NCBI GenBank assembly: GCA_963770895.1
Contig: CAVYRF010000001.1
Location: 704,481-768,480, forward strand
Source of the DNA: an uncultured Acidobacteriota bacterium
Lineage (GTDB): Bacteria; Acidobacteriota; Thermoanaerobaculia; Multivoradales; UBA5704
Reading direction: 5' to 3'
Length of the DNA stretch: 64,000 nucleotides
Shown here: in pieces, positions 3,725 through 51,786 of the stretch
Layout of the letters: each line of letters begins with the position of its first letter
Position numbering within the stretch: the first letter of the stretch is position 1
Program-made: the position numbers and the translations under genes
The notes under the pieces: model-generated
Seen by the model: the letters and a program-made list of their open reading frames with translations, nothing else
Databases searched by the model: none
What the model was told of the DNA's origin: nothing

Positions 3725-3766
3725 AGGTCCAGCGTTGGTATCTCGGGCGGGTCGCTGGACCGCGCA

Positions 3767-5892: not shown

Positions 5893-5909
5893 GGCGTTGG
5901 TCTGGCGCC

Positions 5910-11409: not shown

Positions 11410-11442
11410 GTGCCGCCGCCGCCGGTGTCTCGCCGCCGCCGT

Positions 11443-13359: not shown

Positions 13360-13431
13360 GCGGCTCCTCCTTGGTCAGGCCCCGGATCGCGTGGGAGGCT
13401 CGGCCGGCATGGTATATTCTCCGCGCTCTTT

Positions 13432-34779: not shown

Positions 34780-35196
34780 TCAGCCGGCGCGGAGCAGCAG
34801 GACGGGGACGTTGACGCTGTGCTGGACGCGGTTGGCGGTGACGCCCAGGAAGAGGTCGGCCAGGAAGCGGTGGCCGTGGGTGCTCATGGCGACCAGGTCG
34901 CAGCCGCGTTCGCGGACCCAGCGGACGATTTCGGTGGCGGGGTCGCCGTAGGCCAGCTCGGCCTGGGCGGGGATGCCCAGGGCCTCGAATTCGACGCGGA
35001 CGGCTTCCAGGTAGGCGGTGTCGTCGCGGATCTCGGGGCTCACGGCGTCGGGGCCGAAGGTGCGGGCGGCCCAGCCGGTGGCGACGTGCAACAGGACGAT
35101 GCGGGCCTGGGTGAGCTGGGCCAGGGGCTTGACGTGCTCGATGATGGCGCGATCGCTCCTGGTGGTGTCGAGGGTGACGAGAATGCACTGATACAT
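34780..35196 (-). CDS. Universal stress protein (UspA family)
   Basis: 138 aa from an internal Met MYQCILVTLD. The ATP-binding motif is DLVAMSTHGHRFLADLFLGVTANRVQHSVNVPVLLL. An SD (GGAGG) lies 5 nt upstream. Confidence 0.75.
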   Translation of the reverse strand: MYQCILVTLDTTRSDRAIIEHVKPLAQLTQARIVLLHVATGWAARTFGPDAVSPEIRDDTAYLEAVRVEFEALGIPAQAELAYGDPATEIVRWVRERGCDLVAMSTHGHRFLADLFLGVTANRVQHSVNVPVLLLRAG

Positions 35197-35216
35197 CGCC
35201 CCTCCTGCGCAGCCGT

Positions 35217-35382
35217 TAGTGGCCTGTCCTGGAGAATTCGAAAGCGGATGGCGCCGGCAATCGGCGGCGGGGGCCAGGCGCGCCGACGCAGGCATAGTCG
35301 GAACTATGTCGAGGAGGCGCAACGCCGCACCCGCCGTCGAGGGCAAGCCAGGCGCTTTCGAATTCTCCAGGACAGGCCACTA
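35217..35382. repeat. Perfect 30-bp inverted repeat pair (35217-35246 and 35353-35382) separated by 106 bp
   Basis: Arm 1 (tagtggcctgtcctggagaattcgaaagcg) is the exact reverse complement of arm 2. Each arm contains an internal GAATTC/TTCGAA palindrome. It lies between usp (its upstream region) and the mntH 3' end. Confidence 0.8.
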
Positions 35383-35402
35383 GTGTGCCGCCGCCATGGG
35401 AA

Positions 35403-36812
35403 TCAACCGGTGGGGCCGCCGGCGACGACCTGCCAGGCGGTCCTGAGGGCGTCGGGCAGGCCGTACAGGTCCATGGCGGTGATCAGCAGGGCGCTGGCCC
35501 AGCCGGCGCCGGTCAGCAGCCAACCGGTGCGCCAGGCGCCCATGCGCTGGCGCGAGGCGGTGAACCAGAGCAGCGGGAACATGGCGAAGGGCAGCTGCAG
35601 GGCCAGCACGACCTGGCTCAGGGTGAGCAGGTCGGTGACGCTGCGGTCGCCGTGCCAGGCGATGACTGCGACGGCGGGGACGATCGCGGCGCAGCGGGTG
35701 ATCAGGCGCCGCAGCCAGGGCGACAGGCGCCAGTGCATGAAGCCTTCCATCACCACCTGGCCCGCCAGGGTGCCGGTGATGGTGCTGCTCTGGCCGCTGG
35801 CAAGCAGGGCGATGGCAAAGAGCGCGCTGGCGGCGAAGGTGCCCAAGAGCGGCGCCAGGGTGAGGAAGGCGATGCGGATCCAATCGCTGTCGGGGCGGAA
35901 GGCGACGACCTGGCCGCCGGCCAGGGTGACGCTGGCCTTGCCGAAAAAGACGGTGGCCGCCAGGACCAGGATGGCGGCGTTGACCAGGAACGCGACGCCC
36001 AGCGCCGCGGTCGAATCCAGGGTGTTGAAGCGAATCGCCTGCCGCATGGAGGCCTTGTCGCGCTGCAGCCGCCGGCTCTGCACCAGCGCCGAATGCAGGT
36101 AGAGATTGTGCGGCATGACGGTGGCGCCGATGATGCCGATGGCGACGTAGAGCATACCGCGCTGGCGCAGGCCGGGCGCCGCCAGGGCGCGTCCCATCTC
36201 CAGGAACTGGGGCCGCGTCGCGGGGAGCACGAAGATCTCGGTGAAATAGCAGATGCCGATGGTCGCCACCAGGACCAGGACCACCGCTTCGATGGTGCGC
36301 ATGCCGAAGCGTTGCAGGCCGAGCAGCAGCAGGACGTCCAGGCCGGTGATCACCACGGCCCACAGCAGCGGCAGGTGAAACAGCAGGTTGATCGCCACGG
36401 CGCTGCCCAGCACCTCGGCCAGGTCGCAGGCGGCGATCGCCACTTCGCAGAACAGCCAGTTGGGCCAGCGGGTCCAGGGGGGGAGCCAGTCGCGGCTGCA
36501 CTGCGCCAGGTCCTTGCCGGTGACGACGCCCAGGCGGGCGGCGATGACCTGCAGGAAGATCGCCATGACGCTGGCCAGGGCGACGACCCACAGCAGGCCG
36601 TACTTGAACTGCGCGCCGCCCTGCAGGTCGGTGCCCCAATTGCCGGGATCCATGTAGCCGACGCTGACCAGCAGCGCCGGTCCCGCGAACGCCCGCCAGT
36701 GCCGCCAGAAGCCCTGGTCGGCGCGCGGCACCGCGACGCTCGAATGGACCTCCTGCAACGATTGCGTGGCGGAGGGCGCCGAGGCGGGGCTCATGTCGGA
36801 TGTTTTGAGCAC
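35403..36812 (-). CDS. mntH: NRAMP-family divalent metal (Mn2+/Fe2+) transporter
   Basis: 469 aa, multi-TM. The NRAMP signatures are GPALLVSVGYMDPGNWGTDLQGGAQFKY and MPHNLYLHSALVQSR. Confidence 0.85.
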   Translation of the reverse strand: MLKTSDMSPASAPSATQSLQEVHSSVAVPRADQGFWRHWRAFAGPALLVSVGYMDPGNWGTDLQGGAQFKYGLLWVVALASVMAIFLQVIAARLGVVTGKDLAQCSRDWLPPWTRWPNWLFCEVAIAACDLAEVLGSAVAINLLFHLPLLWAVVITGLDVLLLLGLQRFGMRTIEAVVLVLVATIGICYFTEIFVLPATRPQFLEMGRALAAPGLRQRGMLYVAIGIIGATVMPHNLYLHSALVQSRRLQRDKASMRQAIRFNTLDSTAALGVAFLVNAAILVLAATVFFGKASVTLAGGQVVAFRPDSDWIRIAFLTLAPLLGTFAASALFAIALLASGQSSTITGTLAGQVVMEGFMHWRLSPWLRRLITRCAAIVPAVAVIAWHGDRSVTDLLTLSQVVLALQLPFAMFPLLWFTASRQRMGAWRTGWLLTGAGWASALLITAMDLYGLPDALRTAWQVVAGGPTG

Positions 36813-37036
36813 TCAAAGTATTGAATCACAGGTACCCGAATTGTGTCAAAGCCCAGGTAGCAGGATGGTGACAGCTGCGCTTTCGGCGCTCGCCGCGCTC
36901 GCGCCGCGCCCGCCATCGTCTAGGATACGGGGCCTGGGCTTGTCGGGCAGCAAGGCCCGCCATCATGCGCTCCGCCCGGCGCGGCTTGCGCGCCGTCGCG
37001 GCAGCCTCAGATCGACCCGATCAAGGAGAGAAAATC

Positions 37037-37417
37037 ATGGGAAACCCGTTCTGCCACGTTGAGCTGACCACGACCGACATGGACAAGGCCAAGAGCTTCT
37101 ACACCGGCCTGTTCGATTGGAATCTCCAGGACGTGCCGATGGGTCCTGGCGGCAGCTACACCTTGATCGGCGTGGGCAAGGACAAGGCCGGCTGCGGTGG
37201 CGGCATGATGTCGATGCCGGGCGCCCCGACGGCGTGGATGGCCTACGTGCTGGTGGACGACGTCAAGGCGTCCACCGAAAAGGCCCGCTCGCTCGGTGCC
37301 ACCATCGTCAAGGATGTGATGGAGGTGCCGGGCGCCGGCTGGATGAGCATCATCACCGATCCGGGTGGTGCCACGCTCGGTCTCTGGGAAGCGAACCCGA
37401 ACGCCCAGCAGTCCTGA
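37037..37417 (+). CDS. VOC/glyoxalase-family (PhnB-like) protein
   Basis: An SD (AAGGAGAG) lies 6 nt upstream of ATG MGNPF. Motifs: HVELTTTDMDKAKSFYTGLFDW...GAGWMSIITDPGGATLGLWE. 126 aa. Confidence 0.75.
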   Translation: MGNPFCHVELTTTDMDKAKSFYTGLFDWNLQDVPMGPGGSYTLIGVGKDKAGCGGGMMSMPGAPTAWMAYVLVDDVKASTEKARSLGATIVKDVMEVPGAGWMSIITDPGGATLGLWEANPNAQQS

Positions 37418-37605
37418 TCGCCCAACCTGCCGCCGGCGTGGCTAGTGAGCCGCCTGTACCCGGCGGCCGCGGACAAGCCAGAGCTGGTCGAGGGCAGGCC
37501 CGGCGCCAGCGGTTTTGCTGGTACAGGTCCCTGGTGCCCCGGTCGTCGGGGCACCGGGCGCCCGGTGGGCGGGGTCGGCCGCGGGGCGGGGCCGGCGGCG
37601 CGGTT

Positions 37606-38271
37606 TCAACCGGCGCTGCTGGCGTGGATGCGGCGGGCGGCGGCGGTGCCGACGACGACGGCCGGGTGGCCGGCGGCGCGCAGGGTCACGGCGTCGGCCA
37701 CCGGGTCCAGGCGCTCGACCACCACCTTGCGGCCCGGCACCAGGCCGTGCTCTTCGGCAAAGCGCAGAAACTGGCCGTCTTCGGATTCGACGCGCGCCAC
37801 CTGCACTTCGCACCCCGGCTCGTAGTCGGCCAGGGTGCGGACGCGCAGCTGGACGACTTCCCCCGCGGCGTCGGGGATCGGGTCGCCGTGCGGGTCGGCG
37901 GTGGGGAAGTCCAGCACTTCGTCGATCCGCCGCAGGACCTTTTCGGAAACCGCGTGCTCGAGCACTTCGGCTTCTTCGTGCACTTCGCTCCAGTCGAGGC
38001 CCAGCACCCGCACCAGGAACAGCTCCAGCAGGCGGTGGCGGCGCAGCACGTGCAGGGCGAGCTTTTCGCCGCTGCGCGTCAGCCGCACGCCGGTGCGCGG
38101 TTCGTAATAGACCAGGCGCGCTTCGTCGAGCGCCTTGACCATGCTGGTCACGGTGCCCGGCACGACTCCCATGAGGGTCGCCAGGCGGCCCAGCGGCACC
38201 AGGCGCTCGGGACAGCGCTGCTGTTCCATGTACAGGCGCTTGACGTAGTCCTCGACCGTGCTGGTGGGCAT
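37606..38271 (-). CDS. DtxR/MntR-family metal-dependent transcriptional regulator with C-terminal FeoA/SH3-like domain
   Basis: 221 aa. The HTH region reads VEDYVKRLYMEQQRCPERLVPLGRLATLMGVVPGTVTSMVKALDEARLV. The metal-binding/dimerisation region reads HVLRRHRLLELFLV. It is adjacent and divergent to the methyltransferase operon and near mntH. Confidence 0.85.
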   Translation of the reverse strand: MPTSTVEDYVKRLYMEQQRCPERLVPLGRLATLMGVVPGTVTSMVKALDEARLVYYEPRTGVRLTRSGEKLALHVLRRHRLLELFLVRVLGLDWSEVHEEAEVLEHAVSEKVLRRIDEVLDFPTADPHGDPIPDAAGEVVQLRVRTLADYEPGCEVQVARVESEDGQFLRFAEEHGLVPGRKVVVERLDPVADAVTLRAAGHPAVVVGTAAARRIHASSAG

Positions 38272-38468
38272 TGCGGGGGGAGTCTACCAGGTAGGGTGGG
38301 AGTCGATTGCGTGCTTTCGAACGGTGCGGCAGGCGGGGACATGGTATCATTTGCGCACATTCGACGGCCAGGTATTTGTCGCCGCCGAGCCGCTGTAGTA
38401 CCTTAGTACCCAATGGCGAAAATGCTGGTGCCTCGGTGGGTCGTGCGACGGGTCAAGGTCACCGCGCA

Positions 38469-39227
38469 ATGAAGACCGTGTCCCGCCTGCTGTCCGTCGC
38501 CGCCTACGGCCTGGTGCGACCGTGGATGCGGCGCCGGGTGGGCCGGACGGTGCTCGAATCGATCGATGGCGTGCCGCTGGTGGTGTTGCCCCAGGTGCTC
38601 AACCCGCGCGTCTTCCGCACCGGCGCCTGGCTGGCGCAGGCGGTGCCGCCGGCTGCCGCGCCGGCGGCCACCCGCCGCGCTCTCGACATGGGCACCGGCT
38701 CGGGCATCGGCGCCATCTTCGCCGCCCGCCGCGGCTATCGCGTGACGGCGCTCGACATCAATCCCCACGCCGTCCGGTGCGCTCGCGTGAACGCCCTGCT
38801 CAACGGCCTGGACCAGCAGATCGACGTGCGGCAGAGCGACCTGTTCGACGCCGTCGCCGGCGAACGCTTCGACCTGGTGCTGTTCAATCCGCCATTTTTC
38901 CCCGGCACGCCGCGCGATCCGCTGGACGCGGCCTGGCGCAGCCACGACGTCATCGAGCGCTTCACCGCCGGCCTGCCCGCGGCGCTGGCGCCGGGAGGGT
39001 CGGCCCTGCTGCTGCTGTCCAGCGCCGGCGGCTCCGACAGCAAGCTCCTGGCCCACGTCCCCGCCCAGCTGCGCGTCGCGCCGGTCTTCCGCCGCGGCTT
39101 TGCCGGCGAAACGATCACGCTCTTTGCCGCCACCTGGGTCCCCGCCGCCAGCGCCAGCGCGGCCCAGGCCGGCGCCGCCCGGCCGCTGGCGGCGCCCGCG
39201 CTGTCCTCCGTGGAGGTGATGCGATGA
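38469..39227 (+). CDS. Class I SAM-dependent methyltransferase (HemK/PrmC-like small-domain family, NPPF motif)
   Basis: 252 aa from an internal Met MKTVS. Motif I is ALDMGTGSGIGAIFAARRG. The motif IV region is DLVLFNPPFFPG. It is the first gene of a five-gene translationally coupled + strand operon. Confidence 0.7.
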   Translation: MKTVSRLLSVAAYGLVRPWMRRRVGRTVLESIDGVPLVVLPQVLNPRVFRTGAWLAQAVPPAAAPAATRRALDMGTGSGIGAIFAARRGYRVTALDINPHAVRCARVNALLNGLDQQIDVRQSDLFDAVAGERFDLVLFNPPFFPGTPRDPLDAAWRSHDVIERFTAGLPAALAPGGSALLLLSSAGGSDSKLLAHVPAQLRVAPVFRRGFAGETITLFAATWVPAASASAAQAGAARPLAAPALSSVEVMR

Positions 39228-40816
39228 GCGCCAGCGTTGCCTCGGCAGGCGTGTCGGGCGCGGCGGCGGGCCGCCAGCGGGTGCTGCTGGTCAATCCGCG
39301 CATGTGCTCGCGCCGCTCGATGCGCCTGCCGCTGTCGCTGCTGTCGCTGGGTTCGGTCCTGGAAGGGCGCTACGACTACCAGCTGATCGACGGCAATGTC
39401 GATCCCGACGCCATCGGCACCGCGCTCGCCGCGCTGGCGCAAGGCGACCATGCAATGGTGGGGGTGAGCGTCATGCCGGGGCCGCAGGTGGGGCCGGCGA
39501 TCGCGCTGTCCACCGCGGTGCGCGCGCACTTCCCGCAGGTGCCGATCGCCTGGGGCGGGTACTTCCCGACCCTCTACCCGGATTCGGCGATCAACGCTTC
39601 GTACGTCGACTACGTGGTGCGCGGCCAGGGCGAAGAAACCCTGCTGGAGCTGCTGGCGCGGCTGCCCGACGCCGGGCCGCCGGCGCCGCCATCCGACTCG
39701 GCTGCCGACGCCGGCGCCCTGGCCGGCCTGGCGGGCCTGACCTTCAAGCACGACGCCGAAGTGCGGCACAACGCCGACCGCCACTTCAAGCCGCCGGACG
39801 ACCTGCCGCCGCTGCCCTACCAGCGCCTGGCCGACGTCACGCCCTACCTGCGCCCGACGTTCATGGGGGCGCGCACCGGCGTGCACCAGGCGGCCCTGGG
39901 CTGCCGCTATCGCTGCAGCTTCTGCGGCGTCGTCACGATGTTCAACGGCGTCACCCGCCTGCAGGGAGCGTCGCGCCTGGCGCAGGCGGTGACGACGCTG
40001 CGCGACAAGTACGGCGCCGACTCGATGCAGTACTACGACAACAATTTCTTCGACCGCGAAGAGAGCAGCGTGCCGCTGCTCGAAGAGCTCGCCCGCCTGC
40101 AATCGCCCTGGTGGTGCTATGCGCGCGCCGACACCATGGCGGGCTTTTCGACCCGCACCTGGGAGCTCATCCGCCAGAGCCGCATGCGCATGGCCTACAT
40201 CGGCGCCGAAGCGGGGAGCGACGCGGCGCTGCGCCAGATGAAAAAGGGGTCGCGCGTCGAAGACACGTTGGAGGTCGCGCGCCTGTGCCGCGCCTACGGC
40301 GTGGTGCCCGAGCTGTCGTTCGTGCTCGGCGGCCCCGACGATCCCGAAGGCGAGGTCGAGCACACCCTGAGCTTCATCAAGCGCATCAAGCAGATCCACC
40401 CCACCTGCGAAGTCGTGCTGTACTTCTACAGCCCGACGCCGCGGCGGGAAGCCGCGTCAGAGGCGACGCGGGCCAGCGGCCTGCGCCTGCCGGTGATGGA
40501 CAACTACGGCCCGGACGGCCCGCCGCTGCCGACGACGCCGCTCGAATGGACCGAGCGCAAGTGGATCGACTACGTGTGCCACCAGGACGCGCCCTGGCTG
40601 TCGCCGCGCCTGCGCCGCCGCGTGCGCGACTTCGCGACCGTGCTCGGCTGCCGTTTCCCGACCGTGCAGGACGCCAAGACCCCGGACTGGGGCAAGGCGA
40701 TCCTGCGCAACCTGTCCCGCTGGCGCTACAGCAGCGGCCTCTACGGCAGCCCCTGGGAGCTGGAGCTGGCCCGGCGCCTGGTGCCCTTGCGCCAGCCGCA
40801 GCGCGAAAGCCTGTGA
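39224..40816 (+). CDS. Cobalamin-binding (class B) radical SAM enzyme
   Basis: The ATG overlaps the previous stop (ATGA). The N-terminal B12-domain-like Rossmann region reads RVLLVNP...VGVSVMPGPQVG...IAWGGYFPTLYPD. The rSAM cluster is CRYRCSFCG. 530 aa. Confidence 0.85.
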   Translation: MSASVASAGVSGAAAGRQRVLLVNPRMCSRRSMRLPLSLLSLGSVLEGRYDYQLIDGNVDPDAIGTALAALAQGDHAMVGVSVMPGPQVGPAIALSTAVRAHFPQVPIAWGGYFPTLYPDSAINASYVDYVVRGQGEETLLELLARLPDAGPPAPPSDSAADAGALAGLAGLTFKHDAEVRHNADRHFKPPDDLPPLPYQRLADVTPYLRPTFMGARTGVHQAALGCRYRCSFCGVVTMFNGVTRLQGASRLAQAVTTLRDKYGADSMQYYDNNFFDREESSVPLLEELARLQSPWWCYARADTMAGFSTRTWELIRQSRMRMAYIGAEAGSDAALRQMKKGSRVEDTLEVARLCRAYGVVPELSFVLGGPDDPEGEVEHTLSFIKRIKQIHPTCEVVLYFYSPTPRREAASEATRASGLRLPVMDNYGPDGPPLPTTPLEWTERKWIDYVCHQDAPWLSPRLRRRVRDFATVLGCRFPTVQDAKTPDWGKAILRNLSRWRYSSGLYGSPWELELARRLVPLRQPQRESL

Positions 40817-42537
40817 CGGACACCCAGCCCGACAGGCTGCCGGCAGCGAAGCTGCCGCTGCGGCACGGCGCCTATGCGTGGCAGACGCGCTGGCGCCCCG
40901 GCGAGCTCGCCACCGCCCGCTTCATGCCCATGGGCCTCCACCTGGAGCTGGTCACCAACAGCCCGCCCCTCCTGGCTGCCGCCCGCCAGTGCTTCGGCGG
41001 CTACGGCGAGCCGGCGCCAGACCGCCCCGTCGATCTCACCCTGAGGCTCTACCAGCACTCCGTCGACGCGCCGGCGCCAGGCGCTGGCGTCGCTACGACC
41101 GCCGCTACGTCCGGCCACCTCGCCACGGCAACGGCCGCCGCCGCCAACCCGGCCGGCACCGCCGGCCTCCCCGACCTGGCCAACACCGCCAACCCCGCCG
41201 ACCAGGGGTTCAACGGGGGCAGCGTCGCGGCGATCCACCCAGTGAGGGCGGCTGCCCTCCCGGAGGCCGGGCCGCCCGGCGCCGCCACGTCCGGCAGCTG
41301 TGTCGCCGCAACCGCCGCCGGCGCCACCCCCGGCTCCGTCGCTGCAACCGCCATCCACGCCTCGACGACCGGCAACGCCGCTGCTGCAACCGCCATCGGC
41401 GCCGCCATGTCTGGCAGCTCTAGCGCAGCAACCGCTGCCGACGCTACGACCGGCAACTCCGCTGCTGCAGCCGCCATCGGCGCCGCCATGTCTGGCAGCT
41501 CTAGCGCAGCAACCGCTGCCGACGCTACGACCGGCAACTCCGCTGCTGCAGCCGCCATCGGCGCCGCCATGTCTGGCAGCTCCGTCGCCGCAACCGCTGC
41601 CGACGCTACGACCGGCAGCTCCAGTGCCGCAACCGCTGCCGACGCTACGACCGGCAGCTCTAGTGCAGCAACCGCTGGCGACGCCACGACCGGCAGCTCC
41701 GTCGCCGCCACCTCACCTGTCGCCGCGATGGCTGGTGCCGCCGCCGGCGGCCGGGACGTGCATTTCTTTGACGGCGGCGCCGCCGGCGCGCCGCTGTCCG
41801 CGCCGATCCTGCGCTGCGAGGGTCCGTATCTCTACCAGGCCAGCGGGTCTGACACGGTGATGGTGGCCGACCGCGGCGCCGGGGTCACCTTCGGCTACCT
41901 GGCCGCAGCGACCGTGGCCGATGCAGCGCACCTCACCTGGCACTACCTGTGGCCGGCGGTTTCCTATCACCTGGAATGCCGCGGTTTTGCCGGAGTGCAC
42001 GCCGCCGCCATCGCGCGGCGAGGCCGCGGGCTGCTGCTGCGCGGCCGCAGCGGCCAGGGCAAGACGACGCTCACCTATGCGGCCACCCGTCGCGGCTGGC
42101 AGGCCGTCAGCGAAGACATCGTATGGGTGGACGCCCGCGGCGCCACCTGGTGGGGCTCGCCCTGGACCTTCCACCTGCTGCCGGACGCCCGCCAGCTCTT
42201 TTCCGAGTTGAGCGGGCGCGGCGTCGCCCTGCAGCCCAACGGCGAAGTCAAAGTGGTGGTCGACATGGAATCCCTCTGGCCCGGCAGCACCCTGCCCAAG
42301 GCCGCGGCCGGCCCGGTGGTCATCCTGGAGCGCCGCCATGGCGGCACCAGCAGCCTGGTCACCCTCGACCCGGCCACAGCGCACCACGAATGGCTGGACG
42401 GCTGCGCCCGCCACGAGCGCCAGGCCCCCGGCTACGACCAGACGGTGGCGGACCTGCTCAGCAGAGGTTGCCACCGCCTCCACCTGGGAGACGACCTGGA
42501 CGGCGCCCTGGACCTGTTGGAGCCGCTCCTGCCATGA
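40813..42537 (+). CDS. HPr-kinase-related Ser/Thr kinase-like P-loop protein with internal Ala/Thr/Ser/Gly-rich tandem-repeat insert
   Basis: The GTG start overlaps the previous stop (GTGA); an alternative start is Met +38. The N-terminal domain reads YAWQTRWRPGELATARFMPMGLHLELV. The 230-aa low-complexity insert is encoded by perfect 81-bp tandem repeats. The C-terminal HprK-like domain carries GAGVTFGYL...HAAAIARRGRGLLLRGRSGQGKTTLTYAA (GxSGxGKT/S P-loop). Confidence 0.7.
   Translation: MTDTQPDRLPAAKLPLRHGAYAWQTRWRPGELATARFMPMGLHLELVTNSPPLLAAARQCFGGYGEPAPDRPVDLTLRLYQHSVDAPAPGAGVATTAATSGHLATATAAAANPAGTAGLPDLANTANPADQGFNGGSVAAIHPVRAAALPEAGPPGAATSGSCVAATAAGATPGSVAATAIHASTTGNAAAATAIGAAMSGSSSAATAADATTGNSAAAAAIGAAMSGSSSAATAADATTGNSAAAAAIGAAMSGSSVAATAADATTGSSSAATAADATTGSSSAATAGDATTGSSVAATSPVAAMAGAAAGGRDVHFFDGGAAGAPLSAPILRCEGPYLYQASGSDTVMVADRGAGVTFGYLAAATVADAAHLTWHYLWPAVSYHLECRGFAGVHAAAIARRGRGLLLRGRSGQGKTTLTYAATRRGWQAVSEDIVWVDARGATWWGSPWTFHLLPDARQLFSELSGRGVALQPNGEVKVVVDMESLWPGSTLPKAAAGPVVILERRHGGTSSLVTLDPATAHHEWLDGCARHERQAPGYDQTVADLLSRGCHRLHLGDDLDGALDLLEPLLP
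41371..41691 (+). repeat. Coding tandem repeats: 3 near-identical 81-bp units plus 2 x 39-bp sub-units (encoding (A)AMSGSSSAATAADATTGNSAAAAAIG repeats)
   Basis: The unit ggcaac(g/t)ccgctgctgca(a/g)ccgccatcggcgccgccatgtctggcagctctagcgcagcaaccgctgccgacgctacgacc is repeated at 41371, 41452 and 41533. Copies 2 and 3 are identical over their first 49 nt and diverge over the rest of the unit. Confidence 0.85.
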
Positions 42538-43721
42538 CGCTCGAAGCAATCGCGGACCAGGAGGCTACACCGCCTGCCGCCGCCGCCGCTGCCGGCGGGT
42601 CGCCTTCCGCCGCCGTCGCCGGTGGCGAGCCGCCACCCGGCGCTGCAGGAGACGCCGGGCGTCTGGCGTGGATGTGCGAGCGGCTGGCCGTTTGGGTGGT
42701 CGCCCCGCCGCCGCAGCCGCCGCCGGCGTGGCCGGCCGCGGCGTGGGAGGACTTTCGTGCCGCCACGCAGGTCCACGGCGTCGGCCCGCTGCTGGGGCGG
42801 CGCCTGGGCGACCGCCAGCCATGGTCGCAGGCGGCAGCCTGGCTTGGCGCCGAGCATGCCGCCAACCGCTTGCGCGTCGAGCGTCTGCACCAGGACTTGC
42901 GCGCGATCCTGGCGCGCTTTGCCGCCGCGGACGTGCCGCTCATGCCGCTCAAGGGCGCGGTGCTGGGGCCGCTCTATTATTCCGACCCCGCGGAGCGGCC
43001 AATGGCCGACCTGGACCTGCTGGTGCGCGCCGAAACGCTGGCGCAGAGCGCCCAGCTGCTGGTCGACATCGGCTATGAGGTGGTCTTTGAAGGCCGCAAA
43101 CACGTCAAGCTGGCGCCGCGCGGCGGCCGTCGCCGCCCGGTCAGCGACGCCGGCGGCGCCAGCGACGGCGACGTTGGCGCCGACGCCGGTGGTAGCCCCG
43201 GCCCCGGCCCCGGCGACCACGAGGCGGCCGGCGAGCACCCCGACAACCCGCGCTGGGTCGAGCTGCATCCGGCCTGCGGCGAATGGCTGGGGGACGAGCG
43301 CATCGATCTGACCGGCCCGATCTGGGCCGGCGCCCGCCGGCAGCCGCTGCTGGGCGAGCCGGCCTGGCTGCCCGACCCGGCGACCCATTGGCTCTACCTG
43401 TTGGTGCATGCCACCCACCACATCCTGATCAATCGCTTCCGTCTCATCCAGCTGCTCGACCTGCTGCTGCTTTGCCCGACGGACCTGTTGGGCGCCGCCC
43501 TCCAGGTCGAGCCGCCCGCCGCCGCGGCCGCCATGGCGCGCGCCCTGTACCCGCCTCTCGCGCTCCTCCAACGGTACTTCCCGGCGGGCGCCACCGCCGC
43601 CGCGACGGCCCTGCGCCAGGACTTGCGCGCGCGGCTGGCGCCCGGCTACGCGGCCTGGGCCGACGGCCTGGACCTGTTCCAGGCTTGCTATCTCGACGCC
43701 GCGCCGTGGAGGGCGCCATGA
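42534..43721 (+). CDS. Nucleotidyltransferase-family protein (pfam14907/NTP_transf_5-like)
   Basis: The ATG overlaps the previous stop (ATGA). 395 aa. The motif PLMPLKGAVLGPLYYSDPAERPMADLDLLV fits the G[SG]...D.D nucleotidyltransferase fold. The C-terminal region reads HWLYLLVHATHHILINRFRLIQLLDLLLL. Confidence 0.7.
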   Translation: MTLEAIADQEATPPAAAAAAGGSPSAAVAGGEPPPGAAGDAGRLAWMCERLAVWVVAPPPQPPPAWPAAAWEDFRAATQVHGVGPLLGRRLGDRQPWSQAAAWLGAEHAANRLRVERLHQDLRAILARFAAADVPLMPLKGAVLGPLYYSDPAERPMADLDLLVRAETLAQSAQLLVDIGYEVVFEGRKHVKLAPRGGRRRPVSDAGGASDGDVGADAGGSPGPGPGDHEAAGEHPDNPRWVELHPACGEWLGDERIDLTGPIWAGARRQPLLGEPAWLPDPATHWLYLLVHATHHILINRFRLIQLLDLLLLCPTDLLGAALQVEPPAAAAAMARALYPPLALLQRYFPAGATAAATALRQDLRARLAPGYAAWADGLDLFQACYLDAAPWRAP

Positions 43722-45148
43722 GCGAGCCTGGCGCCGTCAGCGAGCCGGGCACCGTCGGCGAGCAGGGTGCCGTCAGCGAGCCGGGCGCCGCCAGCGAGCC
43801 GGGCACCGTCAGCGAGCAGGGCGCCGTCAGCGGGCCGGGCGCGGTCAGAGCGCGGGGCGCCGTCAGTGGGCCGCGCGGCATGAGCGGTCAAGGCGCCATG
43901 AGCGAGCGCCCGGTGGTGGTGGTGGTGGGCGACGCCGTGGCGCCCACCGGCTTCGCGCGCGTGCTGCACAGCATTCTGGGGCGGCTCGCCGACCGTTACG
44001 AGTTCCATCACCTGGGGGTCAACTACGGCGGCCAGCCGCACGAGCACGCCTGGCAGATCTATCCCGCGGACGGCGGCGGCGACCTGCACGGCGTGCGGCG
44101 CGTGCGCGACCTGGTGGAAAAGGTGCGGCCCCGCCTCGTCTTCCTGCTCAACGACCCCTGGCTGATGGGCGGCTACCTCGACGCCTTGGGCGATTGCCGC
44201 GCCGGCATCAAGGTGATCGCCTACGCGCCGGTCGACGCCGGCCCGCTGGAGGCGGAGCTGGTGGCGCCGCTCACCGGCCTGGATCACCTGGTGCTCTATA
44301 CCCGCTACGGCCTGCAGGAAATGGAGGCGTCGGCGGCGCAGCTGCGCCGCCTGCGCCCCGACGCGGCCGCCTTCCCGGCGCTGTCGGTCGTGCCGCACGG
44401 CGTCGATTCGGACCTCTTCCGCCCGCTCGCCGGCCCGCCCACGGCGGCGGCGCCCGGCGACTTTGCCGCCTCCCGCGCCGCGGCGCGCCGCCAGCTGTTC
44501 GTCGACCCGGCGCTGCACGACGCCTGGATCGTCTTGAACGCCAACCGCAACCAGCCGCGCAAGCGCATCGACGCGACGATCAAGGGCTTCGCGCTCTTTG
44601 CGCGCGACAAGCCGCCCAACGTCCGCCTCTACCTGCACATGGGGATGGTCGATTGCGGCTGGAACGTGGTCGCCCTGGCGCGCCGTCACGGCATCGAAGA
44701 CCGGCTCATCCTGACCGCCGAGGAGCACTTCCTGCCGGCGGTCGCCGACGATCTGCTCAACCAGATCTACAACGCCTGCGACGTGGGCATCAACACCTCC
44801 CTGGGCGAGGGCTGGGGCCTGGTCAACCTGGAGCACGCCGCCACCGGCGCCGCCCAGGTGGTGCCCCGCCACAGCGCCTGCGCCGAGATCTGGGACGGCG
44901 CCGCCGAGCTCGTCGAGCCCGTCGCCAGCCTCACCATGGAAGGCCTGCTGACCGAAGGCCGCCTGGTCGGCCCCGAAGGGGTCGCCCGCGCCCTCGATCG
45001 CCTGTACACCGATCCCTCCCACCTGCGCCGGCTGTCCGCCGCCGCCTACCAGGTCGCCACCCGCCCCGAATACCGCTGGGACGACGTCGCCCGCCGCTGG
45101 GACGATCTCTTCCAGCAGATGCTGGCGGCCACCCCCACTGCCGTCTGA
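43718..45148 (+). CDS. GT4-family (GT-B) glycosyltransferase with N-terminal S-E-P-G hexapeptide repeats
   Basis: The ATG overlaps the previous stop (ATGA). The N-terminus MSEPGAVSEPGTVGEQGAVSEPGAASEPGTVSEQGAVSGPGAV is encoded by 18-bp repeats. An alternative start lies at MSERPVVVV. The GT-B donor-binding region is INTSLGEGWGLVNLEHAATGAAQVV (E-x7-E). Confidence 0.75.
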   Translation: MSEPGAVSEPGTVGEQGAVSEPGAASEPGTVSEQGAVSGPGAVRARGAVSGPRGMSGQGAMSERPVVVVVGDAVAPTGFARVLHSILGRLADRYEFHHLGVNYGGQPHEHAWQIYPADGGGDLHGVRRVRDLVEKVRPRLVFLLNDPWLMGGYLDALGDCRAGIKVIAYAPVDAGPLEAELVAPLTGLDHLVLYTRYGLQEMEASAAQLRRLRPDAAAFPALSVVPHGVDSDLFRPLAGPPTAAAPGDFAASRAAARRQLFVDPALHDAWIVLNANRNQPRKRIDATIKGFALFARDKPPNVRLYLHMGMVDCGWNVVALARRHGIEDRLILTAEEHFLPAVADDLLNQIYNACDVGINTSLGEGWGLVNLEHAATGAAQVVPRHSACAEIWDGAAELVEPVASLTMEGLLTEGRLVGPEGVARALDRLYTDPSHLRRLSAAAYQVATRPEYRWDDVARRWDDLFQQMLAATPTAV

Positions 45149-45283
45149 GAAAATCGCCGTTGATCTGACCCGCTACCACCGCCCCAGACCACTAGACGTG
45201 CGATCGGGGGGCGTGGTATCTTCTAAAACAAGCAGACCAATGTCGTCCTTCGATCCTGTTTGGATGGGGGAGAGGAGGTAAGC

Positions 45284-45589
45284 GTGGCGATTACGGTTGT
45301 CAATCAGTCGGTCGGTGCTCTGTCCTATACCGTGTTCGGCGGCTCGACTTCGGGTTCGGGCACGGGCGGGTCGGGCAGCAAGGGTTCGGGAACCACGGGC
45401 TCCGGTACCCACGGCTCGGGCGGCGGCTCGGGTGTCGTGGCTTCGGGCGTCGTCGGTCCGGGTGGCACCGCGTCCGGGATCCAGGTGGGTGCAGGCTCCT
45501 ATACCGTGGTCTTCGGGTGGAAAACCTTCCCCAGCTACACGGTTTCGGCCTCGGGTGTGGTCAAGGTGACGACGACCGTCCAGCCGTAG
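45284..45589 (+). CDS. Small 101-aa Gly/Ser/Thr-rich protein, candidate modification substrate
   Basis: Ideal SD (AGGAGG) 5 nt upstream of GTG. The product is VAITVVNQSVGALSYTVFGGSTSGSGTGGSGSKGSGTTGSGTHGSGGGSGVVASGVVGPGGTASGIQVGAGSYTVVFGWKTFPSYTVSASGVVKVTTTVQP. Beta-strand-like ends flank a GS(T)-rich core. A lower-GC leader lies upstream. The gene is located between two convergent enzyme operons. Confidence 0.5.
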   Translation: MAITVVNQSVGALSYTVFGGSTSGSGTGGSGSKGSGTTGSGTHGSGGGSGVVASGVVGPGGTASGIQVGAGSYTVVFGWKTFPSYTVSASGVVKVTTTVQP

Positions 45590-45621
45590 CGCGTTCCGAA
45601 CGGTTGCCAGCGCGGCGCGGC

Positions 45622-46656
45622 GTGTCCAGACCTTCGCTGTTCGTCGTCTCGCTGCCGCGCTCTCTTTCGACGCTGCTCTACCACGCGATCCGCCAATCGC
45701 TGGCGTTGCGTGAGCCGCAGTGGACGACGGACGGGGAGATCCTCAACGTCCGTCGCTTTGCCTTTCTGGCGGAGGAGGGCGCGGTCGAGGGGGTGCGCTA
45801 CGTCCAGCGCGATCACGACGGGCCGCGCTTCGCGAAGCTCCTGGCCTTCCTCGACCAGGTGACCCAGGCTCAAGGCTTTGCCTACAAAGACGTCATCCAG
45901 CCCTTCGTCGTCGGCGAATGGCTGGCGCGCCAGAGCGCTCCGCCGGTGGGCGTGAACCGGCCCGCTGCAGCGGCCTCCTCCTCAGCCGCTGCCGAAGGCG
46001 CCACCGCCGCTGCGGCCGCCGCCGAGCGGCGCCGCTCGGCGTCATCGCCGAACAGCCCCGCACGCCCCACACCAGCGGCGCCAGCCCCCGCGGCCGTCTC
46101 TGCCTCCAGCGCTGCGGCACCCGCCCCGCGCGTCCTGGTCATCGACCGGCCGGTGCCTGACGTGGCCGCCTCGTTGCTCGATCGCGGCTGGCTGTATCCA
46201 GCGCTGGCCGCCGACGGCGCGGCGGCGCTTCCAGAGGCCGCGCGCGCGGTGGTCGCCGGTGCCCACACCGCCGACCTGTCGGCATTCCTCCCGCCCGACC
46301 AGGTGGAACGGGCGCTGGTGTCCGGCTTGCTGCGCGCCCGCCGGACCCTGGCCCGCCTGGCGGACCCGCCCCCGGCATGCGCCAGCCGGTGGGTGGTCTA
46401 CGACCAGCTGATCCACGACGAAGCGCCCTTGCATCAGGCCTTGCAGGCGCTCTACGGCGAAGACGTCCCGCCGCCCGCCTATCTGGACGACGAGTTCTGT
46501 CGCCAGCGCGATCAGGTGCTGCGCCGCCGCGCCAGCCCGCTCTACCAGCGCCTGCAGGCGCTCAGCGACGAGCTGGCGACCACGATGCTGGCCGCGCCGC
46601 CGGCCGCCGCCATCGGCGCCGGCGTCGCCGCGGCGCCACGGCGCCGCACGCAGTAG
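45622..46656 (+). CDS. Hypothetical protein with weak sulfotransferase-like N-terminal motif
   Basis: Candidate GTG start (VSRPSLFVVSLPRSLSTLLYHAIRQ). SLPRSLSTLL resembles the sulfotransferase 5'-PSB motif (G.P[KR]SGTT) but is degenerate (G to S, G to L). A long Ala/Pro-rich linker follows, and the C-terminal region has normal composition. The listed ORF start (45517) overlaps the preceding small gene and is unlikely to be real. Confidence 0.45.
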   Translation: MSRPSLFVVSLPRSLSTLLYHAIRQSLALREPQWTTDGEILNVRRFAFLAEEGAVEGVRYVQRDHDGPRFAKLLAFLDQVTQAQGFAYKDVIQPFVVGEWLARQSAPPVGVNRPAAAASSSAAAEGATAAAAAAERRRSASSPNSPARPTPAAPAPAAVSASSAAAPAPRVLVIDRPVPDVAASLLDRGWLYPALAADGAAALPEAARAVVAGAHTADLSAFLPPDQVERALVSGLLRARRTLARLADPPPACASRWVVYDQLIHDEAPLHQALQALYGEDVPPPAYLDDEFCRQRDQVLRRRASPLYQRLQALSDELATTMLAAPPAAAIGAGVAAAPRRRTQ

Positions 46657-46659
46657 CCA

Positions 46660-46885
46660 CCTGCAACACGCTCCGCTCACCGCTCGCCTTCACGGCTCGC
46701 GGTTCGCCACCTGCCTCTTGCGGTTCGCCGCTCGCCCTTCACGGCCCGCGGTTCGCCACCCGCCTCTTGCGGTTCGCCGCTCGCCTTCACGGCTCGCGGT
46801 TCGCCACCCGCCGGTTGCGGTTCGCCGTTGCCGCGGCTCGCGGTTCGCCACCCGCCGGCGGCCTTCGACTGGCGGCCTGAGAGGG
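46660..46885. repeat. Intergenic tandem repeat array (about 48-bp units containing ggctcgcggttcgccacc and cttgcggttcgccgctcgcc) between convergent operons
   Basis: caccgctcgccttcacggctcgcggttcgccacctgcctcttgcggttcgccgctcgcccttcacggcccgcggttcgccacccgcctcttgcggttcgccgctcgccttcacggctcgcggttcgccacccgccggttgcggttcgccg.... About four copies are visible. It is followed by a GC-rich palindromic segment. Confidence 0.75.
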
Positions 46886-46895
46886 CGCCGGCGGA

Positions 46896-48320
46896 TCAGG
46901 ACAGGCGTTGTGCCGGGCGCAGGAAGTTGGCGACCTGCTTTTCGATCGGGGCGGCGTAAAAGTCGCGGTCGCAGCGCCAGCGGGCCAGCGCGCGCAGCGG
47001 CCGGCTCCAGGGTCGGCCGGAATCCCAGGCCAGCTGCTGGAAGAATTTGAAGCGCTCGATCAGCCGGTACTTTTCGGGCGACACCCACGGACCGATCGAG
47101 CCCACGAAGTCAAATTCGCTCCATTCGTCCAGCGTGCAGGGGAGGGTGAAGCCGGCGGCCACCGCGTTCTGGGTGATCGAGGTGCCGGGATAGGGTTTGA
47201 AATAGAAAATCGGCGTCTGGAAGTCGGGGCTCATGGCGCGCAGCCGCTTGACCACCTGCAGGGTGGCGCGCACGTTGTCCTCGGTCTCTTCCGGGAAGCC
47301 GACGATGAAGGGGAAGTTGACCGCCACGCCGAACTTGCGACAGCGCTCGGCGACAAAAAAGACCTGCTCCAGCTTGATGTCTTTTTTGATGCGATCCATC
47401 ATTTCCTGCGAGCCCGATTCGACGCCGACCAGCAGGCGGCGCAGCCCCGAGCGCTTGCACTTGGCGAAGACCTCTTCGCTCATGCGCTGGCCCTGGTCGG
47501 CGCGCATGGTGGCGGCCCAGGTGATGGGGAGCTTGCGGCGGATGAGCTCTTCGGCGACCGCTTCGACGCGCTGGGCGTAGGTGAAAAAGGTTTCGTCCTG
47601 GAAGTTCACGTCGTCGTAGCGCGAGCGGTGCCACAGCGCTTCGAGCTCTTCGCCCATGCGCTCGGGCGACAGGCCGGTCCACTTGCGCTGGTAGACGAAC
47701 GGATCGGCGCAAAAGGCGCAGCGGAAAGCGCACCCCTGCGACGAGATGTAATCCAGCTGGCGCTTGCCCTTGAGGCGATAGTACGGTTCGATGTCGATCA
47801 GGCCGTAGTTGTGGACCGCCAGGGTGTTGACGTCGGCCAGCGGGCGGGCCGTGTTCACCTGCGCGGCGCCGTCCTCGCGGTAGGTGCAACCCTGGCAGCC
47901 GGTCAGTGGCCGCCCTTCAGCCAGGCGCTCGACGATCTCGGCAAAGGTGATTTCCCCCTGGCCTTGCACGGTCACGTCGACGCTCGGTTCCGCCAGGCAT
48001 TCGCGGCCGAACATCGACGGGTGCCAGCCGCCCCAGACGACCGGCAGGTCGGCGCGGCTGGCCTTGGCGGCGCGGCTGGCCGCAACCGCGTCGGCGATCG
48101 GCGCCCCGGTGAGCACCGTGACGCCCAGGCAGAGCGCGCCTTCCAGCTCCGCCACCAGGGCGCGGTGTGCCGCTTCGGGGTTTTTGGCCAACCGGGCGTC
48201 CACGACCACCACCTGGTAGCGCTCGGGATCGAGGTGCGATCCGATGGTGAGCAGCGCCAGCGGCATGGTGTAAAAGACCGCGGTCGGGTTGTACAGCACG
48301 ATTTTGTGGCGGCGACTCAT
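46896..48320 (-). CDS. Cobalamin-binding (class B) radical SAM enzyme
   Basis: 474 aa from an internal Met MSRRHKIVLYNP. The B12-like N-domain reads LPVVWGGWHPSMF. The rSAM cluster is CAFRCAFC. The ATG overlaps the upstream stop (ATGA). Confidence 0.85.
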   Translation of the reverse strand: MSRRHKIVLYNPTAVFYTMPLALLTIGSHLDPERYQVVVVDARLAKNPEAAHRALVAELEGALCLGVTVLTGAPIADAVAASRAAKASRADLPVVWGGWHPSMFGRECLAEPSVDVTVQGQGEITFAEIVERLAEGRPLTGCQGCTYREDGAAQVNTARPLADVNTLAVHNYGLIDIEPYYRLKGKRQLDYISSQGCAFRCAFCADPFVYQRKWTGLSPERMGEELEALWHRSRYDDVNFQDETFFTYAQRVEAVAEELIRRKLPITWAATMRADQGQRMSEEVFAKCKRSGLRRLLVGVESGSQEMMDRIKKDIKLEQVFFVAERCRKFGVAVNFPFIVGFPEETEDNVRATLQVVKRLRAMSPDFQTPIFYFKPYPGTSITQNAVAAGFTLPCTLDEWSEFDFVGSIGPWVSPEKYRLIERFKFFQQLAWDSGRPWSRPLRALARWRCDRDFYAAPIEKQVANFLRPAQRLS

Positions 48321-49399
48321 AAGGGCTCCGGGGTCAATGCCAGCGTGCAGACGCATTTGCGACAGATCGCATCGCGGTCGGTGTCCAGGCCGCGGCGCCA
48401 GGCGAGCGCCTGCGGCGAATTGACGATCGCGTCCAGGCTTGCCGCCTGCCGCAGGTTGCCGAGCGGCGGCTGGAAGAAGCACGGCCGCACCGTGCCGTCG
48501 GCTTCGATCACCGTCGACACCCACGGCGCGTTGCAGCGATGCGGCGGAAAATCGCCGTGGCCGCACAGTGCGGCGTAGTAGTCGTAGAGCCGCGCCCGCA
48601 GCTTCGCCGCGCCCTCGACGATGAAGCCGGATGCGAAGTCGGCCGCGTGCTCGCGTTCCAGGGCGTCCAGCTCGCCGGCCAGCCGCGGCAGCTCCTCTTC
48701 GAGCAGCGCCACCTGGCCGGCGCGCGCCGCTTCCCAGGGCTGCGGCCGGTTGAAGGCGTCGCTGCTGACGTCGGCGGCCAGCAGGCTCAACCAGTTCAGG
48801 CCGATCGCGCGGGCCGCCGTGACGGTGCCGCGCAGGTGGGCGAAGTTGGCCCGCTGGACGGTGCAGCGCCCGCCGATCGTCAGCTGAGGCGCGGCTTGGC
48901 GCACCGCCGCCACCCCGTCGGCCAGCTTGGCGAAAGCGCGCGGCAGGTTGCGGATGTGATCGTGCACGGGCTGCGGCCCGTCCAGGCTGACGATCACTTC
49001 GGAGCAGTAGGCGGCGACCTGGGTCGCGTCGCGCCGCAGCAGCAGACCGGTGGACAGCAGGGTGATCGCGATGCCGGCGCGCCGCAGGTGCTCGCACATC
49101 TCCCACAGGTTGCGGTGCAGCAGCGCTTCGCCGCCCGACAGCGCGACCTGGCGCACCCCCATGCGCTGCCATTCGGCAACCCACTGTGCCACCTCGGCCG
49201 CGCCCAGCTCCTGCTTGCCCGGATCGCGCCAGATGTCGCACATCAGGCAGCGGCAGTTGCAGCGGCTGTGCGGGAACAGGATGACGATCGGCAGCCGCTC
49301 GACCGGTTGGGGCCGCGGCAACCCGTCGGCCGCCCCGCCGCTCCACGCGTTGGCCGGCAGCTCGGCGGCCGGCAGCACCGGAAGCACGGTCGAGCTCAC
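48317..49399 (-). CDS. Radical SAM enzyme with C-terminal SPASM/twitch-type auxiliary Fe-S domain
   Basis: GTG start overlapping the upstream stop (GTGA); 360 aa. The N-proximal rSAM cluster reads ILFPHSRCNCRCLMCDIW. The C-terminal Cys-rich region (GDFPPHRCNAPWVSTVIEADGTVRPCFF...CRKCVC) is typical of SPASM domains. Confidence 0.8.
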   Translation of the reverse strand: MSSTVLPVLPAAELPANAWSGGAADGLPRPQPVERLPIVILFPHSRCNCRCLMCDIWRDPGKQELGAAEVAQWVAEWQRMGVRQVALSGGEALLHRNLWEMCEHLRRAGIAITLLSTGLLLRRDATQVAAYCSEVIVSLDGPQPVHDHIRNLPRAFAKLADGVAAVRQAAPQLTIGGRCTVQRANFAHLRGTVTAARAIGLNWLSLLAADVSSDAFNRPQPWEAARAGQVALLEEELPRLAGELDALEREHAADFASGFIVEGAAKLRARLYDYYAALCGHGDFPPHRCNAPWVSTVIEADGTVRPCFFQPPLGNLRQAASLDAIVNSPQALAWRRGLDTDRDAICRKCVCTLALTPEPL

Positions 49400-50385: not shown

Positions 50386-50387
50386 CG

Positions 50388-51785: not shown

Positions 51786-51786
51786 A

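Follow-up and report, generated by a model that had tools for sequence, protein, structure and literature searches.

The stretch of DNA analysed here (the window) comprises 64,000 nucleotides from an uncultured Acidobacteriota bacterium (GenBank assembly GCA_963770895.1, contig CAVYRF010000001.1). Between 38469 and 46656 it carries a gene cassette, A to G, in which a cobalamin (B12)-binding radical S-adenosylmethionine (SAM) enzyme, a kinase-like protein, a nucleotidyltransferase and a glycosyltransferase are followed by a small protein, F, and a protein with a sulfotransferase fold, G. The genes of the cassette are as follows.

A, 38469–39227, plus strand: class I SAM-dependent methyltransferase, HemK2/MTQ2-like, with DMGTGSG and NPPF motifs (amide/amine N-methyltransferase type); accessory gene.
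B, 39224–40816, plus strand: B12-binding radical SAM protein; core gene, 71–80% identical across loci.
C, 40813–42537, plus strand: HprK/ScmC-like P-loop protein; core gene.
D, 42534–43721, plus strand: nucleotidyltransferase of family PF14907 (NTP_transf_5); core gene.
E, 43718–45148, plus strand: GT-B glycosyltransferase (Glycos_transf_1/GT4); core gene.
F, 45284–45589, plus strand: protein of 101 residues with a GTG start codon and the GGAGG-type Shine-Dalgarno sequence GGAGAGGAGG; candidate substrate, core gene between E and G.
G, 45622–46656, plus strand: protein of 344 residues with a sulfotransferase fold; core gene.

Raw lists of open reading frames (ORFs) are noisy in this DNA because the G+C content of the window is about 72%. 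A frame plot of third-position G+C shows five consecutive plus-strand frames from 38.5 to 45.1 kb, which switch exactly at the proposed junctions. These junctions are four-nucleotide start/stop overlaps (ATGA at 39224, GTGA at 40813, ATGA at 42534 and ATGA at 43718), and the stop codon of gene E ends at 45148. An initial annotation, made from the letters of the window, had described five overlapping genes at 38469–45148, and both the junction letters and the frame plot confirm them. Overlaps of four nucleotides are frequent in this genome, where the convergent operon H to L downstream of the cassette has them at three of its four junctions and a pair of PhyH genes has one (at 9479), so that by themselves they are not remarkable. 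Equal overlaps are present in independently annotated orthologous loci: L001, L002 and L034 have four of four, and L030 has three. A scan of 38200–47000 for promoters and terminators returned sites no more numerous than in shuffled sequences, and a comparison of the whole window with Rfam found no riboswitch or other RNA.

The gene set is conserved in other genomes. An invariant core consisting of the radical SAM protein B, the kinase-like protein C, the PF14907 protein D, the GT4 protein E, F and G was found in 15 further contigs with the gene order kept, and in all of the F-bearing contigs (16/16) the genes run E-F-G or D-E-F-G over whatever sequence there is. Nine further contigs came from a metagenome scan that used F as its seed, and each of them reads E-F-G or D-E-F-G as far as it extends. 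The arrangement A-B-C-D-E-F-G together with the convergent operon H to L is present in L001, L002, L034 and L003/L005, a Thermoanaerobaculia metagenome-assembled genome (MAG). The core B-C-D-E-F-G without H to L or an MTS-type A occurs in L030, L031, L039, L042 and L043, where the nucleotidyltransferase is 40–48% identical. Since these distant loci keep B to G but lack A and H to L, we take B to G as the core and A and H to L as accessory genes. Gene A is present in five of the eight loci whose sequence reaches that far upstream.

The initial annotation had read genes A to E as one co-expressed unit, and this reading is supported. The operon is real, but its boundaries had been drawn too narrowly, as the conserved unit runs on through 45284–46656 and beyond. 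Four of the five genes, B-C-D-E, lie in the invariant core, but the HemK-like methyltransferase A is accessory because it is absent from L030, L031 and L043. The carriers of the cassette are all uncultured, and the named ones are Thermoanaerobaculia MAGs.

Searches with Pfam and NCBIfam agree with the domains originally assigned to the five proteins (NPPF-type methyltransferase, B12-binding radical SAM enzyme, HprK/ScmC-like P-loop protein, PF14907 and GT4), and none of the proteins A to E or H to L reaches any curated NCBIfam cutoff. Methyltransferase A matches PF05175 (MTS) above its cutoff with 59.3 bits and has its NPPF motif at residue 140; it scores 86.2 bits with TIGR00537 (HemK2/MTQ2; cutoff 87) and 65 bits with the PrmC model TIGR03534 (cutoff 199). 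Protein B contains a B12-binding domain (PF02310, 50.1 bits) and a Radical_SAM domain (PF04055, 45.5 bits), both above cutoff, and its CxxxCxxC motif is C227RYRCSFC. Domains and motif assign B and the accessory proteins H, K and L to class B (cobalamin-binding) of the radical SAM enzymes, and all four are predicted to use cobalamin. They score below the cutoffs of the named subfamilies (HpnJ, ladderane-type, rSAM_ocin_1, ApyD, PhpK and Mmp10-like), with best values of 81–126 bits versus 282–750 bits. Glycosyltransferase E matches PF00534 with 31.0 bits (cutoff 26.4) and PF13692 with 32.0 bits (cutoff 27), and its EX7E motif is E364-x7-E372. The N terminus of E in the window holds nine GAVSEP repeats, derived from an 18-nucleotide tandem repeat (43711–43904), that are absent from all orthologs.

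Nucleotidyltransferase D gives a full-length match to PF14907 with 107.9 bits (cutoff 31.2). Its residues K140-G141 and D159-x-D161, which form a Pol-β-type motif, are invariant in 28 homologs, and it has no close relative, the best homolog being 57% identical. The best NCBIfam matches of C are TIGR04355 (30.8 bits, E = 1.6e-7) and TIGR04352 (29.2 bits, E = 4.7e-7), both with a cutoff of 200 bits, and the ScmC model TIGR04249 (20.7 bits versus 125, E = 2e-4). Its match to PF07475 (Hpr_kinase_C) reaches 18.5 bits against a gathering threshold of 33.3 (E = 1.6e-3) and covers just 51 residues around the P-loop; precomputed PF27840 matches on its orthologs are weak or faint. Profile searches therefore group C not with canonical HprK/P but with HprK-related and ScmC-type proteins, and D with PF14907. 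The Walker A motif GRSGQGKTT (411–419) and the acidic dyad SEDIVW (434) of C are invariant in seven orthologs. Sequence searches of the PDB gave nothing significant for either C or D. The window copy of C carries a lineage-specific insert of about 250 residues rich in Ala, Thr, Ser and Gly, with 39/81-nucleotide tandem DNA repeats (41283–41712), which is absent from all orthologs.

The small protein F is preceded by a strong Shine-Dalgarno sequence in six of the six loci examined. Its family is rare, with 37 clusters of 82–101 residues each among 5.8 billion proteins and about ten small-protein representatives among 1.84 billion, the other matches in the latter collection being long Ig-like repeat proteins. 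No match to F was found in Pfam (E values up to 5), in NCBIfam or in phmmer and hmmsearch searches of the PDB, nor any to NHLP, Nif11 or another leader family. Conservation of F extends over almost its whole length, with 28 columns invariant and the N- and C-terminal parts β-rich. Its centre is variable, spanning 33–68 residues with 62% Gly plus Ser and 7–16 SG dipeptides, and in divergent members it consists of overt tandem repeats, for example six copies of PSGSGVI. AlphaFold2 (AF2) predicts seven β-strands and a disordered loop at residues 23–48. F has no signal peptide, recognisable leader or conserved C-terminal serine.

Protein G also gave no match in Pfam (E values up to 5), NCBIfam or phmmer and hmmsearch searches of the PDB. 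An AF2 model of a compact G ortholog has a predicted local distance difference test score (pLDDT) of 89.8, and its top Foldseek matches are Stf0, TPST1/2 and Teg12/14 (probability 1.0, E about 1e-4, template modelling score (TM) 0.41–0.46). The equivalent of the phosphosulfate loop in G is a conserved PRSLS(S/T), PRSLST in the window, versus PRSGT(S/T), with Gly changed to Leu, and the sequence RPVxDVAYAM stands where the canonical 3′-phosphate-binding motif (3′-PB) has RDPxxxxxS. Comparison of G with a canonical sulfotransferase by hhalign gave E = 0.013 and a probability of 3%. Because PRSLS(S/T) replaces PRSGT(S/T), the activity of G is uncertain. In one relative, P0177, a canonical sulfotransferase is fused to a G domain.

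A scan of a genome collection with G returned mostly G-only loci in unrelated contexts from Gaiellaceae, Solirubrobacteraceae and other MAGs (23 loci). As such loci are common, the G family reaches beyond the cassette, and the presence of G by itself does not mark a cassette. One stand-alone G-like gene (L033, 8001–8735) is situated beside LPG_synthase_TM, sugar epimerase, GT2 and SIS-domain genes. The window copy of G contains a 63-residue Ala/Pro-rich insert (residues ~110–172, about 45950–46140) that is absent from all orthologs.

A precedent for the pairing of C and D is found in lasso-peptide biosynthesis. The HprK homologs of lasso clusters phosphorylate a serine of the precursor, as PsmK does in pseudomycoidin, and PsmN, a PF14907-like protein in which D134/D136 (D-x-D) are essential, is required for the addition of one or two hexoses onto the phosphate (PMC6993621, PMC8498205). 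Sulfotransferase genes often accompany such HprK/nucleotidyltransferase lasso clusters (PMC8498205, PMC6993621). A metagenomic lasso cluster recovered in the course of this analysis (L032, 7948–18930) contains an Asn-synthase cyclase, a transglutaminase-like protease and PqqD, and also holds an ScmC-like kinase, a PF14907 nucleotidyltransferase, a luciferase-like oxidoreductase, two PMT_2 glycosyltransferases and tricorn-like proteases. In the homolog search its nucleotidyltransferase, with 38% identity, lay further from D than those of the core-only loci. Protein C is 42% identical to the kinase of this cluster (E = 4e-49) and D is 37% identical to its nucleotidyltransferase (E = 6e-47), so that the initial annotation was right in linking such pairs to lasso clusters.

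The cassette shares with the paeninodin/pseudomycoidin pair (PadeK/PsmK and PsmN, often with a sulfotransferase gene) an equal enzyme trio in C, D and G, and its expected chemistry would likewise be phosphorylation of a serine followed by transfer of a hexose onto the phosphate. Unlike the lasso clusters, it lacks a lasso cyclase, a B1/B2 protease, a RiPP recognition element (RRE; RiPP, a peptide made by the ribosome and then modified post-translationally) and a lasso-type precursor. The absence of a cyclase and protease had been stated before and is borne out here: in tblastn searches with the three lasso core proteins of L032, the best match in the window had E = 0.4 and nothing was found in any cassette locus, and none of the scanned ORFs of the window contains a lasso-type Pfam domain (cyclase, B2 protease or B1/RRE). 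A lasso cluster was therefore rejected, as neither the window nor any cassette locus encodes a cyclase, protease or RRE. The substrates would differ as well, the lasso precursor being a peptide with a C-terminal serine and the putative substrate of the cassette a β-rich protein of about 90 residues with internal Ser/Gly repeats. A further difference is that the B12-binding radical SAM protein and the GT4 glycosyltransferase are obligatory partners in the cassette.

The chemistry suggested in the initial annotation, in which a protein or a sugar would be methylated, phosphorylated and given glycosyl or nucleotidyl groups, is plausible, and F can be added to it as a specific candidate substrate. 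We regard modification of F as the best reading. We tentatively propose, at somewhat less than an even chance, that the locus is a post-translational modification cassette whose substrate is most likely the co-encoded F protein of about 90 residues. From the observed gene presence, gene order, motif integrity and homology we infer every chemical step of the following scheme. C would use ATP to phosphorylate serines in the repeat segment of F, as lasso HprK homologs do on a precursor serine, and D would place a hexose (or a nucleotidyl group) on the phosphate, as PsmN does in pseudomycoidin. E would lengthen the glycan. B, the accessory methyltransferases and the extra B12-binding radical SAM enzymes (A, H to L, and the FkbM and UbiE-type methyltransferases) would methylate sugar or peptide carbons and heteroatoms. 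G, with its sulfotransferase fold and altered loop for 3′-phosphoadenosine 5′-phosphosulfate (PAPS), might sulfate the product or merely bind it. The outcome would be a methylated mini-protein bearing multiple phospho-glycosyl groups. The catalytic motifs in the enzymes of the cassette are intact.

Several observations weigh against this proposal. C scores under every curated cutoff (HprK, HprK-related A and B, ScmC), and when the profile of its orthologs was compared with the PDB, HPr kinases ranked first and aligned at the HprK P-loop region, with E values (0.2–1) that are not significant. For F, AF2 was confident in just one of five models. Lasso kinases target a C-terminal serine, whereas the C terminus of F is not a conserved serine, and as F is conserved along its whole length it may be a folded accessory protein instead of a substrate. 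No exporter or protease is conserved across the cassette loci. Moreover, neighbouring and co-occurring genes are often of glycan type (GT1, FkbM, polysaccharide deacetylase, pyruvyl transferase and Wzx), and the closest solved relatives of the radical SAM proteins include AprD4 for B, with BlsE the closest for I, both of which are sugar-modifying enzymes. A non-protein glycan product would fit these neighbours and the AprD4 and BlsE relatives equally well.

Such a product would come from a pathway in which an oligo- or polysaccharide or a glycolipid is built and methylated, phosphorylated and possibly sulfated, with F as an accessory protein such as a lectin-like binder, chaperone or primer. 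We consider this rather unlikely, though it is the strongest competitor to modification of F. The window itself contains, besides the GT4 protein E, a fusion of an FkbM methyltransferase with a GT1 domain, a polysaccharide deacetylase, a Wzx-like flippase and a GT2 glycosyltransferase; PS_pyruv_trans is present in L002, and Hexapep, a deacetylase and GT4 in L034. However, the loci that hold the core only show no conservation of the flippase, GT2 and deacetylase genes. The relatives of B and I named above, the structural proximity of HemK-like methyltransferases to the aminoglycoside N-methyltransferase GenN, the trehalose sulfotransferase Stf0 as top structural match of G and the occurrence of G-like proteins alone beside sugar-metabolism genes in Gaiellaceae MAGs are all consistent with a sugar as substrate. 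Set against these is the observation that peptide tailoring is the sole characterised role of HprK-like/PF14907 pairs (PMC8498205, PMC6993621), and C and D are homologous to a pair embedded in a lasso cluster. In addition, F is invariably present, tightly placed between E and G, and its variable Ser/Gly repeats resemble acceptor sites.

F could also be the precursor of a cleaved RiPP of the proteusin/polytheonamide type, with a Gly/Ser/Val/Ile-rich centre that would be C-methylated by the B12-binding radical SAM enzymes, epimerised or cross-linked by the SPASM-type radical SAM protein, N-methylated by A and released as a small bioactive peptide. There is a likeness to the proteusin clusters of polytheonamide and aeronamide in the several genes resembling B12-binding radical SAM C-methyltransferases, the HemK/PrmC-like N-methyltransferase, the further radical SAM protein and the small product rich in Gly, Val, Ser and Thr. 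The window encodes four B12-binding radical SAM proteins, one SPASM radical SAM protein and two methyltransferases, there are weak matches to the RiPP C-methyltransferase families rSAM_ocin_1 and ApyD, Asn N-methyltransferases of the AerE type are HemK/PrmC-like in structure, and F is small with its own strong ribosome-binding site. The core, however, contains a single B12-binding radical SAM protein, and the block with several of them is accessory and lineage-specific. F has no split into leader and core, and no match to NHLP, Nif11 or other leader families; both of its ends are highly conserved, repeat number alone varies, and the AF2 prediction suggests a folded β-sandwich. No PoyD-type or other epimerase family is matched by the radical SAM proteins, there is no dehydratase, and no protease, RRE/PqqD protein or transporter is conserved in the cassette loci. 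The cassette core has a kinase, a nucleotidyltransferase and a glycosyltransferase, unlike proteusin clusters. We therefore think a proteusin-type product improbable. A role in anti-phage defence or conflict, in which the nucleotidyltransferase, a GT4-conflict-like glycosyltransferase and the radical SAM protein would act on nucleotides or phage components, is very improbable, as generic weak matches (GT4-conflict, E = 4e-3; AbiEii, E = 3e-4; a pVip-like radical SAM core; a mad2 methyltransferase domain) are countered by PADLOC matches that are all domain-level and partial, without any system-specific model, and by the location of the cassette, which is stably syntenic on the chromosome (Usp-Nramp-DtxR) among relatives and shows no hallmarks of mobile elements.

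If the modification of F is taken further, the cassette could be a bacterial system resembling proteophosphoglycan synthesis, in which the Ser-Gly repeats of a β-sandwich F would be phosphorylated many times by C, each phosphate would be capped with sugar by D and extended by the GT4 protein, and the glycan or peptide would be C-methylated by cobalamin radical SAM enzymes. This more specific version we regard as unlikely. In the proteophosphoglycans of Leishmania, a eukaryotic form of phosphoglycosylation, sugar-phosphate is attached to serines in Ser-rich repeats. The likeness would be one of functional analogy alone, as the enzymes are unrelated. If the bacterial version holds, uncultured Acidobacteriota-like bacteria would have a new class of phosphoglycan, one that is ribosomal, protein-anchored and methylated, and F would be the first defined non-lasso substrate for an HprK-like/PF14907 pair.

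The systems with TIGR04352/TIGR04355 HprK-related kinases and the SynChlorMet cassette are predicted peptide-modification cassettes. The present cassette resembles them in that TIGR04355, TIGR04352 and ScmC are the best NCBIfam matches of C, and the accessory protein I weakly matches the SPASM-type radical SAM proteins ScmE (56 bits versus 400) and ScmF; I is absent from core-only loci. It differs in that C scores only 21–31 bits versus 125–200 and in its partners, namely the B12-binding radical SAM protein, GT4, F and G. Neither an Scm-type peptide nor a PqqD-like protein was found. HPr kinase/phosphorylase belongs to the same fold family of P-loop kinases and acts on a serine of a small (~90-residue) folded protein, and C aligns with HprK over the segment HG...G.GhLh.G.SG.GKS...RG..hhADD. 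The match of C is not significant over the whole protein, however, and its N-terminal domain differs, while F is all-β and unrelated to HPr.

The initial annotation did not recognise the combination as a described system, and this holds: we found no curated family or model, solved structure or paper that covers it. In the cassette, a tailoring module of the HprK-like/PF14907 kind appears to stand outside a lasso context, in a new and strictly conserved setting and together with a new family of candidate substrates. To our knowledge, HprK-like kinases with PF14907 nucleotidyltransferases are known solely as optional tailoring enzymes of lasso peptides, and we know of no in vitro reconstitution of the reaction of the PF14907 family. 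As the candidate protein substrate F can be made recombinantly, the chemistry of the kinase and PF14907 families is directly testable. Two new protein families without annotation, F and G, are defined. A phospho-glycan or a Ser/Gly repeat peptide as the substrate of B would be new for B12-dependent radical SAM enzymes, and modules of the RiPP-tailoring type may act on small folded proteins.

Downstream of G, the convergent, translationally coupled operon H to L (46896–53367) is, by its conservation with A to G, an accessory part of the system in this lineage, and two further genes, M and N, are possibly part of an extended system.

H, 46896–48320, minus strand: B12-binding radical SAM protein, in the convergent accessory operon.
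I, 48317–49399, minus strand: radical SAM protein with a SPASM/twitch C-terminal Cys cluster, weakly ScmE/NirJ/BlsE-like.
J, 49396–50391, minus strand: class I methyltransferase (Methyltransf_25); best NCBIfam match CpaM, below cutoff.
K, 50388–51785, minus strand: B12-binding radical SAM protein, 80–84% identical across loci.
L, 51787–53367, minus strand: B12-binding radical SAM protein.
M, 53654–54916, minus strand: protein of 420 residues without a family match, with a signal or anchor at its N terminus; conserved beside L in L005 and L034.
N, 55950–56831, minus strand: polysaccharide deacetylase (PF01522); ortholog in L034.

The gap between the convergent genes G and H is filled by a 48-nucleotide tandem repeat (46680–46856; 3.8 copies, 90% matches). 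Some 25 kb upstream of the cassette, at 8.7–17.8 kb, there is another group of genes that appear to belong to the system, because genes 50–64% identical to them stand directly beside the core cassette in L030, L043 and L003.

8670–9482 and 9479–10261, plus strand: two PhyH-type Fe/2-oxoglutarate (2OG) dioxygenases, 56–64% identical to genes flanking the core cassette in L030.
10228–11442, minus strand: protein of 404 residues without an assigned family; ortholog adjoins the core cassette in L030 and L043.
11443–13374, minus strand: FkbM methyltransferase/GT1 fusion; ortholog adjoins the core cassette in L030 and L043.
16851–17810, plus strand: UbiE/CpaM-like methyltransferase; in L003, L030 and L043, orthologs (50–56% identity) lie immediately upstream of B or A.

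The two PhyH dioxygenase genes are probable displaced members of the system, which seems to be split in this genome by a segment containing a nonribosomal peptide synthetase (NRPS) and the Usp, Nramp and DtxR genes. Both J and the methyltransferase at 16851–17810 are of the UbiE type and have the corrinoid protein-associated methyltransferase CpaM as best NCBIfam match (60–75 bits versus a cutoff of 180). The position of orthologs of the latter gene directly upstream of the B12-binding radical SAM gene B is a hint of joint function with cobalamin enzymes. A gene for a TonB-dependent receptor lies directly 3′ of G in three loci, at 13363–15318 in L031, where it overlaps G, at 3266–5233 in L042 and at 11183–13111 in L043. 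All three receptors have the vitamin B12 receptor BtuB as best NCBIfam match (200–206 bits versus a cutoff of 600), and judged by this likeness their presence would most simply be explained by cobalamin supply for B.

Directly 5′ of the cassette, a trio of genes for Usp, Nramp (MntH-like) and a DtxR-family repressor is found in four loci, namely the window (34780–38271), L001, L002 and L034. In the window the repressor gene is divergent to gene A, with an intergenic gap of 185 nucleotides, and a metal-dependent regulatory link of the repressor to the cassette is possible. In L002 (6513–6677) and L034 (3452–3616), an ORF for a Cys-rich protein of 54 residues (MKKSVKKLVLHRESLRLL...SCETICGLICPQP) that resembles a RiPP precursor abuts the start of A. 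It was rejected as a core part, and so as the precursor, because the window, L001, L003, L030 and L031 lack it.

The NRPS (22104–34448) has 4,114 residues with three adenylation, four condensation and four carrier domains and a terminal thioesterase. A link between the cassette and this protein was rejected, as the NRPS stands beside the cassette in no orthologous locus. Upstream of the NRPS, 19222–20058 on the minus strand encodes a PEP_mutase-family protein (PF13714, 256 bits), which may be either a phosphonate-related protein or one of the isocitrate-lyase type. Near the start of the window, on the minus strand (1268–6741), a gene for a KaiC-like double-ATPase protein (4105–6741) adjoins one for a PAS/GAF hybrid histidine kinase with a receiver domain (1268–3766).

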